Origin: a virus
DNA length: 39,300 bases
UHGV virus genome: UHGV-0123126
Strand: one strand, 5' to 3'
How positions within the stretch are numbered: position 1 is the stretch's first letter; every line of letters starts with the position of its first letter. A program made the position numbers and the translations under genes. The notes beneath the pieces were generated by a model. It did no database searches. It worked only from the letters and a program-made list of their open reading frames with translations, and was not told the origin of the DNA. Shown here piece by piece: positions 13,701 to 23,787 of the stretch.

Positions 13701-14266
13701 TGGTCGTAGAATGGGGTAGGGTGCGGATAAACCACGCTATAGAAGTTGTCTTTCCCGCCCGCTGTAATCAGTGAGCTTATGATTTTTGCAAAATCGTTGC
13801 GTTGGAACACGCTACCGATGTCGGAAGTGAGCAGGATGATGTTGCCTTTGGCATATGTAGAAACCAACTGTTCGAGCGAGAGACGCGGTACAAAGTAGAA
13901 CTGTTCTCGTGTGTTGGCCACCGTCATTAGTTCGCAGATGTCGCGATATCCTTGCTCATTTTTAATTAGAGCGGTAAACGAGTAGTTACGTCCCCGCTCT
14001 AATGATTCCATACATCTCATAGATTCTTTAGCAAGTTTAGCCCGGTGCTCGTATGTGGGATCATCAACGATATTTAGTTTCACACCACAAATAACCGCCA
14101 TGTCGTCACCAGCGGCACGTTGTAGTGGAATAACACTCGCAATATTCATGCTATCTGCTGAAATTACAGCGGTGTAGCCAGCTTCTCTGGCAATCTTCAC
14201 CGCGTTTTCTGCTTTTAGAGCCGACTCCCCAAGTGAGAAGTCAGTTCGAACCATCAGTGCTTTCAT
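10748..14266 (-). CDS. dnaE: DNA polymerase III alpha-subunit-like replicative polymerase (DnaE family, N-terminal PHP domain)
   Basis: 1172-aa ORF with PHP-like N-terminus and overall DnaE-like length and architecture. Confidence 0.9.
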   Translation of the reverse strand: MKALMVRTDFSLGESALKAENAVKIAREAGYTAVISADSMNIASVIPLQRAAGDDMAVICGVKLNIVDDPTYEHRAKLAKESMRCMESLERGRNYSFTALIKNEQGYRDICELMTVANTREQFYFVPRLSLEQLVSTYAKGNIILLTSDIGSVFQRNDFAKIISSLITAGGKDNFYSVVYPHPTPFYDQINVRAMKVASALKIEPVAFYPAYYESIDDADIKDIAHMVTNNIKIDQPHRLRIPHQRDNAVNGRRHLLEALKAFSVRMDVPVTAAMASTTQDSIIEACTWRWHELPPALPKMADDEPATLMKLAVAGLRKRLTTKEFGYTPPASENRVYVERLKYEMDTLTRLGFCGYFLMVRDLMNHSRETGIPVGPGRGSSAGSLVAWCIGITNVDPIRHGLLFERFINPERLDLPDADLDFSQARRHEVIEYLNERYGEDYVAGIPNFTYLGAASALRDTARIYGVESADMAVSKELKNAEDDSLPLEELREQLASLDKYATKYPDAFNAACKLQSLMRGFGRHAAGMIVAGVPLTERTPVERRGDARCIAFDKRYCEAMGLIKLDVLGLATLDLLDSAKRYIKENTGEDINLDAISLEDRKVLDGFAAGYTQGVFQLESGPMRKLLKDLGGGIEPMSFKTVVATTALFRPGPIQSGMLDDYVSVAKGFMTPESLHPVLDELTAETNGVILYQEQTMNATRLLAGFTMAEADAVRSAIGKKNMEKMKSMGEKFIVQAQAGWIDVELEDGTTQRIHRAEHFKCEDGTLKTVEEALEHGAKLPINAVRVTASHPGLSEMKAKEIWTAFEKNGAYQFNKSHSVSYSLISYQSMWLKTHYPAEFFAAALTILGEDKHQGLVKDALTYGIRVLPPDVNVSSNRIEIRTLEDGSQALYAPFSAVKGCSENGCQAIMRAREKVGGKFESVAQFDEAVEKRACNSRVRESLHKVGAFASIEPGSLPATDPERLRDQAELMGNLIIDAVKASRPFEMNPKRSAEINVLMTRMAAEMGLGEELIRPTIGIKPKIMIILDNANGNDARTGYFMENGYDDFKAKLLTVGDLRMGDLYVTGVCKKVKDKEKDYTKDEIGQFTDFMREEINLVRPTYILTCGSRSTALFNNKSKPSDLIGRKEYFPELDATVFYGFNPNILYFRPEEGERLEAILADIAETINK

Positions 14267-17984: not shown

Positions 17985-18197
17985 TTAACAGATTCTGACG
18001 GCTAAAGACCCGGAGCCGGTATTGAGAAGCGTGAAGCGTTTGTTGTTAAGTTCGAATATAAAGCCAGTTGTGTCATTCACACCAACCTGAATCTGCTCAT
18101 TCGGTAGATCGGTGAGGATGTCAGCTACACACTCATCAGCTAATTTCTGTACGTGTCCGATCTCAAGAGCGATTAGGCTGGAAATAGTGGTGTTCAT
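17985..18197 (-). CDS. Hypothetical small protein, first gene of the cobT-cobS-dnaE operon
   Basis: 70-aa ORF preceded by TATAAGT-type A/T-rich motif. Confidence 0.45.
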   Translation of the reverse strand: MNTTISSLIALEIGHVQKLADECVADILTDLPNEQIQVGVNDTTGFIFELNNKRFTLLNTGSGSLAVRIC

Positions 18198-18448: not shown

Positions 18449-18835
18449 ATGTCTGATAACAAGATTGAATTTATAGAAAGTCGCTACGCTGCTTTTATCG
18501 CAGGGTTGATTGAATCCTCACCTATGAGCCAGGCCCAGATAGCCAAAACAATTGGGTATAAAAACGCCAACAACCTTTCTTTAATTAAAAGCGGCAAAAT
18601 TCCTTTGCCTATCGATAAGGTTCGTCCGCTGGCGCTGGCACTGGGCATTGAGCCAAGTCGTCTTATGATGATGGTGCTGGAAGAACGCCAACCCGAACTC
18701 GCAGCATTTTTATACAAAGAAGGCACTGCTCCTCTTAACGAGGACGAAAAACAGGTTCTTGCTGCATATAACGAGCGATTCGGTAAAGAGAAAGGCGCAT
18801 CACAAAAGGTTGTTGAGGCCATAAAGTCTCTATGA
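18449..18835 (+). CDS. Helix-turn-helix (XRE-like) transcriptional regulator
   Basis: 128 aa; HTH segment SQAQIAKTIGYKNANNLSLIKSGK; divergent from the replication operon, convergent with the recombinase. Confidence 0.7.
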   Translation: MSDNKIEFIESRYAAFIAGLIESSPMSQAQIAKTIGYKNANNLSLIKSGKIPLPIDKVRPLALALGIEPSRLMMMVLEERQPELAAFLYKEGTAPLNEDEKQVLAAYNERFGKEKGASQKVVEAIKSL

Positions 18836-19933
18836 AAAATTTACACGAATAAGCTCTGTTGATAGACGATCTCCCTTAAATTTGTGGTCAATTTCGTCTA
18901 AATCCGGTTGCTCTACGATTGATGCGATGTACGTCGAGAAACTTTCTAAGGCGTCTCGCATCTCGTCCATATAATCGTGCCGGTCGTAGACCCGATCTAT
19001 CCCCTCAAGACTGTGGTTCATGATTTTACGTGATACCTCCTGGCTTATGCCTAATGCTGGGAAGTAACTACGCGCAGTACGGCGCAAATCTCGGGGTGTA
19101 AATGGCTCAAGCTCCATCAGTTCTGGTCGTTCCAGAATACGACGTAATGCCTGGGCTATTGCCACTTTAGACATAGGAAGGTCTTTCCCGATTTTTTTAT
19201 TCGAAGGCACGAGCCACTGGCTGTCTTTACCATATTCGAACAACTCTTCAATACAAGTGCGCATTAATGAGCTTAAAGGCAGAGAATGCTCACGGGCAGA
19301 TTTGTTCCTCTTGCCTTGATTCCAAACCCCACGCTTAAGATTGAACTCACTTTTTTTAGCCCGCAGTACTTCGTCAGGTCGTCTTGCGGATACAAGACAT
19401 AGCCTGGCCGCCCATTTTGTACCAGCGCACACATTGAAGTAGTCCCATATATTCCAGAACACCCATACCTCTGCGTCGGTCAGCTTCCGCTCGCGAGGTG
19501 TGGGCTTTGCGCCACCGGCAACTTTGTTAAGTGACATATCGTTTAACGGTGACACGTCTATCATCCCCTGGAAGGCGCACCAGCTAAGGAACTGCTTCAT
19601 CAGAGAGAAAACGCGGCGGCCCATAACAATTTTGCCATCCAGTATTAGTGGGTTGACCAGTTGGTTCACCATGAACCTATTAATGTCACTTACTTTTACA
19701 TCGGCAATGTGCGGCAAAACATGTATCAAAATACAATGAACAGCGATCTCTGGCCGACGTCTGGTTATCAGCAGAGATAAGCGAGTGAATAACATGAATG
19801 CGTCCGAGAATCTCATGTCATTGCTGACCTGGGAGATCATAACGGCCTGCATTTGAGATGCTCTTTCGAGATACTCTATCGCCTCTTTTGAGGTGTTCTC
19901 CGCAGCGCGTGCTCTGTCAAAGCTATTTTTCAT
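18830..19933 (-). CDS. Tyrosine recombinase / integrase family protein
   Basis: C-terminal catalytic region RDLRRTARSYF ... MNHSLEGIDRVYDRHDY (R..H..Y pattern); 367 aa. Confidence 0.8.
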   Translation of the reverse strand: MKNSFDRARAAENTSKEAIEYLERASQMQAVMISQVSNDMRFSDAFMLFTRLSLLITRRRPEIAVHCILIHVLPHIADVKVSDINRFMVNQLVNPLILDGKIVMGRRVFSLMKQFLSWCAFQGMIDVSPLNDMSLNKVAGGAKPTPRERKLTDAEVWVFWNIWDYFNVCAGTKWAARLCLVSARRPDEVLRAKKSEFNLKRGVWNQGKRNKSAREHSLPLSSLMRTCIEELFEYGKDSQWLVPSNKKIGKDLPMSKVAIAQALRRILERPELMELEPFTPRDLRRTARSYFPALGISQEVSRKIMNHSLEGIDRVYDRHDYMDEMRDALESFSTYIASIVEQPDLDEIDHKFKGDRLSTELIRVNFS

Positions 19934-19959
19934 ATGACAATCACCGAGTTACGCCGATG

Positions 19960-19979
19960 CACTGTATAAGTAAACAGTA
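19960..19979. promoter_or_regulatory. LexA-box-like site CACTGTATAAGTAAACAGTA (CTGT-N8-ACAG)
   Basis: Fits CTGT-N8-ACAG with A/T-rich spacer; about 30 bp upstream of the recombinase start. Confidence 0.4.
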
Positions 19980-20031
19980 TATTAGGCATAGATTCTTATA
20001 GGATCAAGAGTAAAAGTAACTCATTTTCAGC

Positions 20032-20064
20032 AATGATTCCATACATAGTAGGTATGGAATCATT
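20032..20064. repeat. Perfect 13-bp inverted repeat AATGATTCCATAC-(7 bp)-GTATGGAATCATT; lox/dif-like candidate core site
   Basis: 13-bp arms with 7-bp spacer, about 100 bp upstream of the tyrosine recombinase gene. Confidence 0.45.
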
Positions 20065-20143
20065 TTGACGTTGTTTTTTGAATTTTAAGGGAAACGGGAG
20101 TGAGTTTGGTGGGAATAAAAACGGCTCCTGTGAGCCGTTAAAA

Positions 20144-20563: not shown

Positions 20564-21826
20564 ATGCCTTTTTTAATTTTCATTATTATACTACTGCTCA
20601 CCGTCATTTTTTGGGATTGGGTTGTTTTAAATGGTCAAACTGTTGGAACATTGGCTACAGCATTTGCTTTTATAGCAACAGCATGGAATGCCTACGAAGC
20701 GAGAAAAAGTGCAAAAGCAGCTTTTTCAGCCCTTCAATTAACAACTGAATCATTGTTCGAAATGCGAAAGAGTGCATTTAAACAATGGTTTGATTCCTTA
20801 TTAAATCAACATGATGAGTTATGTCTTCTTGCAAAACAAATTATCGATAAACACAAAATTAATTTAAACAGCGATGAGTTACATAGACTATATTATCCAT
20901 TGGTAAGACAGCATGAGGTAATACAGTATGTGAAGCATATTATTAATATATTTGAGTATGTGGATGGTTCATTTTATATTGATGGGGAATGTCTCAAGGA
21001 AAAAAGAGCGTATGTGTCACAATTAATTTTTAAAATCCCACCTCAGATGAAGTTGATCATTGCTATCTTTGGATTAAAAATCGATTATTGTGAACATATT
21101 AATTCGGAAAAACTGTGTTGTTTATTGAATAAATATGATTTTTTCAATGATGAAATATTTTTTGATGATGCTTATTCAAATATGCCTTATCTGGATACAT
21201 TCATAAACCTTAGATTCAACAAAATATTCAAATCTCGAATGATAAATTATTTTGATAATATCATTAAAAGTTATTATGTTCCATCGGACGTTAAAAGGGA
21301 CTGGATGTTTCGACACCCAAAGCTCGTACCGTCGGTTCTTATGAATTATAAAACTCCTTGTTCTCCTATAATTAATGATTACTTTGAGAAGTTGCCTTTA
21401 CATGTAAGAAACTACTTTGAGGAACTACTTAAAACCGCGAATGATAGAGTTACTCATTTTGACGTTTACATCCCACGCCTTATTGGTTGTTCAATCGTGC
21501 AACATTACGAAGATGTGCCTTCCGAAAAAAACAGGTTAAATGACAGGAATGATGTAATAGCTATGGCTGAAGATTACATCGAGAAAAGAAAATCTAATCA
21601 ACTAGATTACATACTTGAAGATATATACTTTAAGAGTGACGAAGATATAATCCCAGGCCACCATTTAATTGTGGCATTTGATGACTATGAATATAAATTA
21701 GCACTAATTAAGATAAATGAAAATAAAGATAACGATAATCTTTTAAATCGAATTTATACTGAATCCAGTAGCATGGTTAATGAATATAAGCGCGAAATAT
21801 TAAAATTGGGCGACTATGCAAAGTAA
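20564..21826 (+). CDS. AT-rich membrane-anchored protein of unknown function (two N-terminal TM helices, about 370-aa cytoplasmic domain); candidate abortive-infection/defence protein
   Basis: 420-aa ORF with GC content clearly lower than flanking DNA; only long plus-strand gene here; own terminator. Confidence 0.65.
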   Translation: MPFLIFIIILLLTVIFWDWVVLNGQTVGTLATAFAFIATAWNAYEARKSAKAAFSALQLTTESLFEMRKSAFKQWFDSLLNQHDELCLLAKQIIDKHKINLNSDELHRLYYPLVRQHEVIQYVKHIINIFEYVDGSFYIDGECLKEKRAYVSQLIFKIPPQMKLIIAIFGLKIDYCEHINSEKLCCLLNKYDFFNDEIFFDDAYSNMPYLDTFINLRFNKIFKSRMINYFDNIIKSYYVPSDVKRDWMFRHPKLVPSVLMNYKTPCSPIINDYFEKLPLHVRNYFEELLKTANDRVTHFDVYIPRLIGCSIVQHYEDVPSEKNRLNDRNDVIAMAEDYIEKRKSNQLDYILEDIYFKSDEDIIPGHHLIVAFDDYEYKLALIKINENKDNDNLLNRIYTESSSMVNEYKREILKLGDYAK

Positions 21827-22018: not shown

Positions 22019-22105
22019 TGGCGGAGAGTAATGGAATCGAACCATCATCGTTTGCACAATGGGACGGTTTTCAAGACCGCTTGAGCACCATGCTCCCTAC
22101 TCTCC
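22019..22105 (-). tRNA. tRNA-Ser (anticodon UGA), class II with long variable arm, CCA encoded
   Basis: Hand-folded: acceptor GGAGAGT/ACTCTCC, anticodon loop CTTGAAA, T-loop TTCGATT, discriminator G + CCA. Confidence 0.6.
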
Positions 22106-22322
22106 AATTGTTGTGGTTACCGGTACTGATCTCCGGCTTAGCGACCCCGGCTACTGACTGCATTGCAGTGTGTGAACTCGCCTCGTGTGTCGCTGGGGCA
22201 TTTCTTTCCGCGCATCAGTCTGCGCATCAACCACAACGAAAAGAGCACTGTATGACGTTTGCACGGACTTACGCTTAAAACAGGGCAGTCTCGGCGGTTT
22301 TCAATGCTCTTTCCTGTTGTGT

Positions 22323-22398
22323 TGGTGCCGGTTAACGGACTCGAACCGCTGACATCCTGCTTACAAGGCAGGCGCTCTACCAACTGAGCTAAACCGGC
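22323..22398 (-). tRNA. tRNA-Thr (anticodon UGU), CCA encoded
   Basis: Hand-folded: acceptor GCCGGTT/AACCGGC, D-arm GCTC..GAGC, anticodon stem CCTGC/GCAGG with loop CTTGTAA, T-loop TTCGAGT. Confidence 0.8.
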
Positions 22399-22402
22399 AA
22401 TT

Positions 22403-22489
22403 TGGTGGGGAGTGATGGAGTCGAACCACCCGAGTCGCCATGACAGTAGATTTACAGTCTACACCGCTACCTCTACGGACTAACTCCCC
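22403..22489 (-). tRNA. tRNA-Tyr (anticodon GUA), long variable arm, CCA encoded
   Basis: Hand-folded: acceptor GGGGAGT/ACTCCCC, anticodon stem GTAGA/TCTAC with loop CTGTAAA, T-loop TTCGACT. Confidence 0.8.
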
Positions 22490-22494
22490 TAAAT

Positions 22495-22569
22495 TGGCGA
22501 TGGTGGGTGGATTCGAACCACCGACCAGTTGGTTAACAGCCAACTGCTCTACCGCTGAGCTACACCATC
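22495..22569 (-). tRNA. tRNA-Asn (anticodon GUU), CCA encoded
   Basis: Hand-folded: acceptor GATGGTG/CACCATC, anticodon stem GTTGG/CCAAC with loop CTGTTAA, T-arm GGTGG-TTCGAAT-CCACC. Confidence 0.8.
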
Positions 22570-22835
22570 AATTCAGCACTGCCAGTATTTATTACTCAAC
22601 AGTGCCAATCGCGACGGTTTAGTTTCTGCCAGGAAACGCACCGCTACTTGCACTTTTCGTTAGTGCCAGACGCTTTCGACTTCGCTCAATAGTAGAAGGC
22701 AAAATCTTTAAATAGATGATGTTTCTGAGGACAGCACCTACTTTGTAATTTATACAATGTGATGTATGGAATAATTTGTTGTGAAAACAGGCACCAATGG
22801 CAACAGTGGTTAAACCTACACAACAATCCCGTCTT

Positions 22836-23638: not shown

Positions 23639-23787
23639 TTTTTCACCTTTGTTTCATGAACTACCCGATACACACGCTTTCCGATGCACAGTGTTTTGGT
23701 TTTAAGTTCCTGCTTAATTAAATCACGACAGATGCCGAAGCCGATAAGGAAGCCACCCATAAAAGCTAATGAGATGTATGGAATCAT
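23635..23787 (-). CDS. Small membrane protein (50 aa), not in ORF track
   Basis: Own translation MIPYISLAFMGGFLIGFGICRDLIKQELKTKTLCIGKRVYRVVHETKVKK; ATGA overlaps at both ends. Confidence 0.4.
   Translation of the reverse strand: MIPYISLAFMGGFLIGFGICRDLIKQELKTKTLCIGKRVYRVVHETKVKK

Follow-up and report, generated by a model that had tools for sequence, protein, structure and literature searches.

The 20-mer at positions 19960-19979 of the window (the whole 39,300-nucleotide stretch of UHGV virus genome UHGV-0123126 that was analysed) would be, with a probability of roughly 0.8, a functional LexA operator on the promoter (Pint) of a tyrosine recombinase gene, making the recombinase SOS-inducible. 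That the 20-mer is a genuine LexA binding site is very probable as judged from its sequence. The original prediction of a LexA box at this place is supported by the score of the site, by its operator position, and by half-sites that are held while the spacer and flanks diverge.

In the proposed mechanism, a LexA dimer on the box would occlude the edge of the -10 hexamer and the transcription start site, keeping the recombinase low in undamaged cells, and RecA* would trigger the self-cleavage of LexA, upon which Pint would fire. The SOS-driven Pint transcripts would also run antisense into a neighbouring repressor gene. Less certainly, an adjacent inverted repeat may serve the recombinase as a simple site in the style of Cre or Xer. 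Also less certainly, the enzyme would probably resolve multimers of the extrachromosomal element or rearrange it in another way, rather than integrate it into the chromosome.

The window region is 98% identical to Escherichia phage Cyrano (pLF82), and plasmids of Klebsiella, Salmonella (pHCM2), Enterobacter, Citrobacter, and Cronobacter and the pMT plasmids of Yersinia pestis are related to it at 74-79%. On the basis of these matches, the window can be assigned to an SSU5/pHCM2/pMT1-like phage-plasmid of the SSU5 supercommunity. The tyrosine recombinase is a persistent gene of this supercommunity (PMC7969092). In total, 824 PLSDB plasmids match the region. Among 5,426 complete E. coli genomes, 252 carry it, in 255 copies that are without exception located on plasmids (255/255), with none on a chromosome. 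The module was also found in S. Typhi pHCM2 and in Y. pestis pMT1, where it adjoins the caf1 capsule operon.

The probable LexA box and the predicted recombinase promoter

On the plus strand, positions 19960-19979 read CACTGTATAAGTAAACAGTA, with the half-sites CTGT (19962-19965) and ACAG (19974-19977) separated by the spacer ATAAGTAA, in which seven of the eight bases are A or T. The box is assigned to the minus strand, where it reads TACTGTTTACTTATACAGTG, as a palindromic operator on the basis of its sequence, score, and conservation. The motif CTGT-N8-ACAG with an A/T-rich spacer, as originally described, is confirmed, and its position, given at that time as about 30 bp upstream of the recombinase start, is correct: the distance from the box edge at 19960 to the A of the ATG at 19933 was measured as 26 nt. 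This distance is typical of LexA-dependent genes, in which the box and the ATG are separated by 21.6 ± 5.8 bp (PMC8072944).

The window contains a single CTGT-N8-ACAG, against a mean of 0.56 in shuffled windows, of which 42 of 100 have one or more; with so high a chance expectation, the bare motif has no significance by itself. Over its whole length, the 20-mer agrees with TACTGTATATATATACAGTA, the consensus of the LexA box, in 16 of 20 positions, the mismatches being position 1 and three spacer positions; this consensus is confirmed in two published studies (PMC8072944 and PMC3108266). Scoring against a LexA matrix, the check that the original prediction had proposed, gave 21.8 bits for the box and 10.1 bits for the second-best site in the 39.3-kb window. 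The matrix was symmetrised and derived from 25 E. coli LexA boxes, which reportedly go back to Lewis in 1994 and Fernandez de Henestrosa in 2000. These boxes score between 12.8 and 25.1 bits, which places the present box in the upper part of their range and on a par with strong chromosomal operators. According to the exact score distribution for the base composition of the window, a stretch of 39.3 kb should contain 0.0012 sites that reach 21.5 bits.

The predicted promoter Pint consists of a -35 hexamer, TTGATC (20002-20007, minus strand), and a -10 hexamer, TAATAT (19979-19984, minus strand), both read from the sequence. A Shine-Dalgarno-like GGTGAT (19940-19945, minus strand) lies 6 nt 5' of the ATG, and its GTGA/GAG core is kept in an alignment of 11 relatives. 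Along the minus strand, the elements are thus arranged in the order inverted repeat (20064-20032), 24 nt, -35 hexamer, 17-nt spacer, -10 hexamer, LexA box (19979-19960), 14 nt, Shine-Dalgarno-like sequence, and ATG (19933). Pint matches 8 of 12 consensus positions, which is below the 9-of-12 threshold of a simple promoter scan, so that it was unreported there; the promoter, of sigma-70-like type, and its start site are predicted, and the case for the reality of the promoter rests on conservation. The first base of the box is the last base of the conserved -10 hexamer, and the box also overlaps the predicted +1 of Pint, which should lie near 19972 on the minus strand. A LexA dimer on the box would therefore cover both the edge of the -10 hexamer and the predicted start site, i.e. 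the classic layout of an operator. The intrinsic terminator of the upstream glutaredoxin gene (20120-20139, minus strand; AACGGCTC-ACAG-GAGCCGTT followed by TTTTTATT) isolates Pint from transcription coming from upstream.

The Cyrano genome (108 kb) was found to contain no strong LexA boxes other than the box at Pint and one located 5' of CYRAN_98. The second box, TACTGTATGTGTATACAGTA, scores 24.9 bits and lies outside the window (OV696614.1, 89275-89294, corresponding to L012 39275-39294), 17 nt upstream of CYRAN_98, which is a umuD/humD-like S24 peptidase gene. Its product is the only S24-type protein of the element, and no DNA-binding domain is annotated in it, a statement that refers to the annotation only.

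Conservation among relatives

In an alignment of 11 diverged relatives, TTGA(T/C)C, the -10 hexamer, TACTGT, and ATACAGT are fixed, while the flanks and the 6-8 bases at the centre of the box differ. So that the choice of loci would not depend on the box, the inverted repeat was the sole criterion by which 124 related loci were gathered. Of these 124, 107 have a box that scores 15 bits or more and lies at a constant 52-55 nt from the repeat, and 26 box variants were distinguished. All 26 carry CTGT or CTGG as the left half-site and ACAG or CCAG as the right one, and the relatives include the unpaired combinations CTGT...CCAG and CTGG...ACAG, which fit an independent recognition of the half-sites and not base pairing.

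The relatives comprise 79 unique sequences with a median pairwise identity of 70%. CTG[TG]-N8-[AC]CAG is kept in all of them (79/79), and the exact CTGT/ACAG pair in 76. The -35 hexamer is TTGATC or TTGACC in 77 of the 79 sequences, with TTGA being invariant, the -35/-10 spacer is 17 nt long in 76, and the -10 hexamer is TAATAT or TTAAAT in 75. Invariant columns are confined to the repeat arms, TTGA, the -10 hexamer, CTGT, and ACAG; the spacer of the box varies, and the geometry of box, -10 hexamer, and ATG is kept throughout the 79 unique relatives. This pattern is a phylogenetic footprint in which a sigma-70 promoter carries a LexA operator, and it suggests that the half-sites are kept under selection in the Escherichia, Salmonella, Klebsiella, Enterobacter, Citrobacter, Cronobacter, and Yersinia relatives.

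A sister clade with 56-61% identical recombinases (Chimaeribacter and several IMG/VR contigs) carries the repeat approximately 46-60 nt from the ATG and no box, and the same absence of a box was observed beside the 44-50% identical homologues of Xenorhabdus, Providencia, Photorhabdus, and Pantoea. The Buttiauxella relative (84% identical) contains a degenerate box of 11.4 bits, and the K. oxytoca type, at 59% identity, possesses a box of 24 bits. Because the distant relatives keep the recombinase and a co-varying repeat without a box, the box is a clade-specific addition, inserted into an older recombinase/repeat pair and kept in the phage-plasmids of Enterobacteriaceae and Yersinia. The box-less relatives (44-61%) and the decayed box of Buttiauxella also indicate that SOS control is not essential to the recombinase.

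Two further LexA-like sites were noted in the sister clade. A LexA box of Chimaeribacter, located approximately 750 nt beyond int (the recombinase gene), was dismissed as part of unrelated neighbouring genes. In five loci that lack the box at Pint (L024, L026, L048, L115, and L122), a conserved LexA-like sequence, CACTGTACAAATACTCAGTA (14.5-16.7 bits; e.g. L122, 2330-2349), with TCAG as the right half-site, lies inside the 3' end of int and faces the convergent helix-turn-helix (HTH) gene. This site may be functional or may simply be conserved coding sequence.

The recombinase, the inverted repeat, and neighbouring genes

The tyrosine recombinase ('integrase') is encoded at 18830-19933 on the minus strand and comprises 367 aa, with a core-binding and a catalytic domain but without an arm-binding N-terminal domain. 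It matches PF00589 (Phage_integrase) and, weakly, PF22022 (central domain), and falls in phrog_1. The catalytic residues R185, K211, R284, H307, and Y316 are conserved in an alignment with 30 homologues, and the recombinase is intact and conserved. Its AlphaFold model has two domains and a pLDDT of 85.5. In a fold search with this model, the closest structures were lambda Int (residues 75-356), Tn1549 Int, and Xer, with IntI and Cre ranking lower; a sequence search of the PDB yielded no match at E < 0.1. The arm-binding domain PF13356, absent here, is found only in homologues that are 25-31% identical in the alignment (26-34% by BLASTP). Chromosomal integration by the recombinase was considered and rejected in view of the 0 chromosomal copies in 5,426 complete E. 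coli genomes, and the protein is probably not a chromosomal integrase.

A side observation concerns R281 (codon 19093-19095), which replaces the usual second catalytic His (HxxR). The motif reads RDLR throughout the recombinase family; the remote relatives with an arm domain differ at the R281 column, which is neither invariant nor nearly so in the alignment.

The inverted repeat next to the gene (20032-20064, no strand assigned) is a perfect 13-7-13 structure, AATGATTCCATAC-ATAGTAG-GTATGGAATCATT. Its arms, TGATTCCATAC and GTATGGAATCA, are invariant in the 11 relatives while the 7-nt spacer varies, and they remain invariant wherever the recombinase is >56% identical. Beside the 44-50% identical homologues, both arms are changed together to TGACTCCAGAC-N7-GTCTGGAGTCA (L138, 2413-2441; L140, 2453-2481; L141, 2405-2433; L142, 2409-2437). 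The co-variation was also observed beside a solitary int on a Pantoea megaplasmid, with no phage or repressor genes nearby. This symmetric co-variation of the arms with the protein points to the repeat as the recombinase's own core-type site, from which we infer that the repeat is its binding and recombination site; as such, the repeat would be a candidate for a lox-like target in a recombinase family that is uncharacterised. The recombinase may serve in multimer resolution or cyclisation, or in some other role. A role of the repeat as an operator of the HTH repressor was rejected, the motif being absent from the promoter region of the repressor and the repeat being kept beside the solitary Pantoea int.

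Lone copies of a repeat arm (TGATTCCATACAT) were found at 14002-14014 (plus strand), 19316-19327 (plus strand, degenerate), 22764-22775 (minus strand), and 23776-23787 (minus strand), i.e. in a dnaE-like gene, in int, and twice to the right of a tRNA cluster, and their positions are conserved. In 104 related loci, the copies to the left of the repeat are all on the plus strand and those to the right all on the minus strand, so that they converge on the repeat; 13-16 nt of each are invariant, their flanks vary, and all lie within approximately 6.3 kb of the repeat in the 108-kb genome. With only four to five homologous sites, this polarity is statistically weak by itself. Shufflon-like inversion via the scattered half-sites was rejected, as gene order and orientation are identical in 104/104 oriented loci. 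Cassette capture with flanking second sites was likewise rejected, since none was found in 11 loci and the near-matches are either at chance level or known half-sites. The pattern GATTCCATAC-N7-GTATGGAATC occurs once each in three Amycolatopsis genomes (L020, L022, and L023), in G+C-rich surroundings. With approximately one chance match expected in 596 Gb, these are most likely a coincidence, and they probably represent one chance occurrence inherited within the genus.

An HTH regulator gene of 128 aa, annotated as 'putative repressor' in Cyrano, is located at 18449-18835 on the plus strand and converges on int. The two genes overlap tail to tail by 6 nt (18830-18835) without a terminator between them, and this convergent overlap is kept in every annotated relative, down to 44% identity. 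Owing to this convergence and overlap, each transcript must run antisense into the other gene. In Pfam searches, the repressor shows an HTH domain and no S24 self-cleavage domain. Beyond the repressor gene, which is antisense to int, a 70-aa gene (phrog_2627; 17985-18197, minus strand) lies downstream of int on the same strand.

The surroundings of the module contain two variable spots. Homology between relatives ends approximately 25 nt past the inverted repeat (window positions 20065-20143, with equivalents in L001-L010), and a hotspot for cargo, empty in this window, extends between the repeat and the glutaredoxin gene. The cargo found there in relatives includes the caf1 F1-capsule operon (Y. 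pestis pMT), YafO-family toxin pairs, IS elements, a colicin E1-type immunity gene, and, in Cyrano, a moron expressed 723-fold above the local background. The second spot, between the glutaredoxin gene and the tRNA cluster, is occupied here by a 420-aa ORF (20564-21826, plus strand) with an N-terminal hydrophobic segment, which belongs to phrog_18168 (unknown function) and has no Pfam or PADLOC match; Cyrano carries a Gp49-family gene at this site. The cluster itself comprises four tRNA genes at 22019-22569 on the minus strand (Ser-TGA, Thr-TGT, Tyr-GTA, and Asn-GTT), of which Cyrano has three, without Tyr. Similar tRNA clusters occur in P7, D6, and N4-like phages.

Expression, alternative explanations, and known systems

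Between the repeat and the ATG, Cyrano differs from the window at one base, which lies just after the repeat and outside the box and the hexamers. Expression values for its genes were taken from the LF82 RNA-seq data re-analysed in PMC9928086 (tables S1 and S4). The log2 level of int (CYRAN_44) is 5.6 in LB, 7.9 and 6.1 in medium at 1 and 6 h, and 8.9 and 10.3 in macrophages at 1 and 6 h, respectively. The increase between medium and macrophages at 6 h (+4.2 log2, approximately 19-fold) ranks 8th among 123 Cyrano genes, the median being +0.9. The co-directional upstream genes CYRAN_41 and CYRAN_42 rise by +1.6 and +0.2 log2, respectively, indicating that Pint is where the increase of int begins. 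The RNA-seq data also show a rise in macrophages of the chromosomal SOS genes sulA, umuC, dinI, and umuD (by +2.6, +3.0, +4.3, and +4.8 log2, respectively) and of CYRAN_98, the gene of the second box (by +3.1 log2). Induction of sulA of LF82 in macrophages has also been reported (PMC6855411), and ciprofloxacin raises the production of Cyrano virions 39-fold. On the other hand, hicAB, CYRAN_60/61, and some late genes, all without LexA boxes, rise as much in macrophages, and in plain medium, too, int is elevated at 1 h. The rise of int in macrophages parallels that of SOS genes and is supportive of, and consistent with, LexA control, under a multi-stress condition that is not LexA-specific. The 70-aa gene (CYRAN_46) tracks int at the same level (r = 0.98, +4.7 log2), and the gene after it (CYRAN_47) rises by about +1.9 log2 at a level roughly 5 log2 lower. 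The repressor mRNA goes up and not down in macrophages (+2.4 log2), and Cyrano virions went undetected in macrophages in spite of the induction of int.

Several explanations other than direct SOS control of the recombinase were weighed against these data. The probability that the palindrome is not a LexA site, and instead represents a chance match, a hairpin in the 5'-leader RNA, or an operator for a phage protein, is next to negligible. A bare motif is indeed expected 0.56 times per window and the palindrome is able to form a 6-bp stem, but only 0.0012 sites are expected at the score of the box, and the structural reading of palindrome and leader was rejected because the leader fold is unremarkable (z = -0.69), 39 of 200 shuffles folding as well. 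Moreover, the box variants stay within the known repertoire of LexA, including the unpaired half-sites, and the only S24-type protein of the element has, as far as annotation goes, no DNA-binding domain. It is also highly improbable that the box is a weak or vestigial operator, to which LexA may bind while int is governed mainly by something else, e.g. by the recombinase on its own repeat or by the lytic programme of the phage, with little direct SOS effect. Such control would be in line with the ancestral layout, in which the repeat lies close to int and the LexA box is missing, with the decay of the box in Buttiauxella, with the rise of int at 1 h in plain medium, and with the many non-LexA genes that are up in macrophages. 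However, the strict conservation of the half-sites and of the overlap between box and -10 hexamer in 79 diverged sequences argues for continuing selection, and the score equals those of strong chromosomal operators.

A variant in which the box binds LexA but mainly gates prophage induction is considered unlikely. According to this variant, antisense transcripts from Pint would lower the non-cleavable HTH repressor and run on into the 70-aa gene, and the transcriptional interference would flip the lysis-lysogeny switch. The 6-nt tail-to-tail overlap, which is too tight for a terminator and persists in relatives as distant as 44% identity, would suit such a switch, as would the presence of only two strong LexA boxes in the whole Cyrano genome; the repressor has no S24 self-cleavage domain, yet Cyrano is induced 39-fold by ciprofloxacin, and CYRAN_46, beyond the repressor gene, tracks int, with the next gene rising much less. 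However, box-less relatives share the same convergent layout, the repressor mRNA increases in macrophages, virions were not detected there despite the induction of int, and the 250-nt switch region may contain a separate promoter for CYRAN_46. The corresponding idea that Pint is the DNA-damage sensor of the whole phage-plasmid, operating through a LexA-gated convergent-transcription switch and not through an antirepressor, is tentative and of low probability; if true, the convergent switch would explain the quinolone induction of SSU5/pHCM2-type elements.

The preferred reading, a LexA operator that makes the recombinase SOS-inducible, concerns a module of a very common, approximately 100-kb phage-plasmid family that is clinically relevant and poorly understood. 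In the searchable literature on SSU5, pHCM2, and pMT1, we did not find a description of the box, of LexA binding, of a recombinase site, or of an integrase function. In these phage-plasmids, a LexA operator on Pint would for the first time concretely connect the SOS response to antibiotics with recombination, and possibly with induction. Taken with the 13-7-13 repeat, which co-varies with the protein, the box also yields a candidate for a simple pair of recombinase and target. The wiring as such is no surprise, and its value lies in the direct experimental handle that it offers on an abundant plasmid-phage family.

Among known systems, the P4-type integrases differ from the present recombinase in their arm-type domain PF13356, which is absent here, and the 255/255 E. 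coli copies of this element are on plasmids and not on the chromosome. In coliphage 186, tum is a LexA-controlled switch. N15, with the antirepressor antC, and GIL01, with LexA and gp7, are plasmid prophages with LexA-gated induction, as cited in PMC11652158. These three resemble the present element in being temperate, in having a repressor unable to cleave itself, and in borrowing the host LexA to sense DNA damage. However, LexA targets an antirepressor or co-represses lytic promoters in those elements, whereas its putative target here is a recombinase gene, next to which no antirepressor is evident.

The Cre/loxP system of P1 (and likewise Dre/rox, VCre, and Vika) shares with the present module an extrachromosomal prophage and a two-domain tyrosine recombinase encoded beside a 13-bp inverted repeat. 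In both cases, the 13-bp arms surround a short, asymmetric spacer of 6-8 bp; here, the arms co-evolve with the recombinase, and the element is never chromosomal in complete E. coli genomes. In contrast, sequence similarity to Cre is undetectable, the fold match is generic (E ~1e-2, TM 0.44-0.48), and the spacer is 7 nt long here versus 8 in loxP. To our knowledge, cre is not regulated by LexA.

SOS control of integron integrase promoters was reportedly described by Guerin in 2009. The present recombinase is not an IntI: NCBIfam gives a weak, generic integrase-domain match only and no integron-integrase model, and VchIntIA (2a3v) is a poorer fold match than lambda Int, Tn1549 Int, and Xer. Its site is a plain duplex 13-7-13 inverted repeat and not attI/attC, no second full repeat is present in or beyond the cargo at 11 loci, and the element is a phage-plasmid. 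The likeness to integrons lies in the arrangement: in intI1 and Vibrio intIA, the Pint of a tyrosine recombinase carries an E. coli-type LexA box that partly overlaps the -10 hexamer, the recombinase site immediately precedes the gene, past this site lies cargo that varies and is often expressed strongly, and the box has been lost in some lineages (Cambray 2011, PMC3108266). A LexA box on a recombinase promoter, which appears to be undescribed for the SSU5/pHCM2/pMT1 family, is thus an arrangement already known from integrons.
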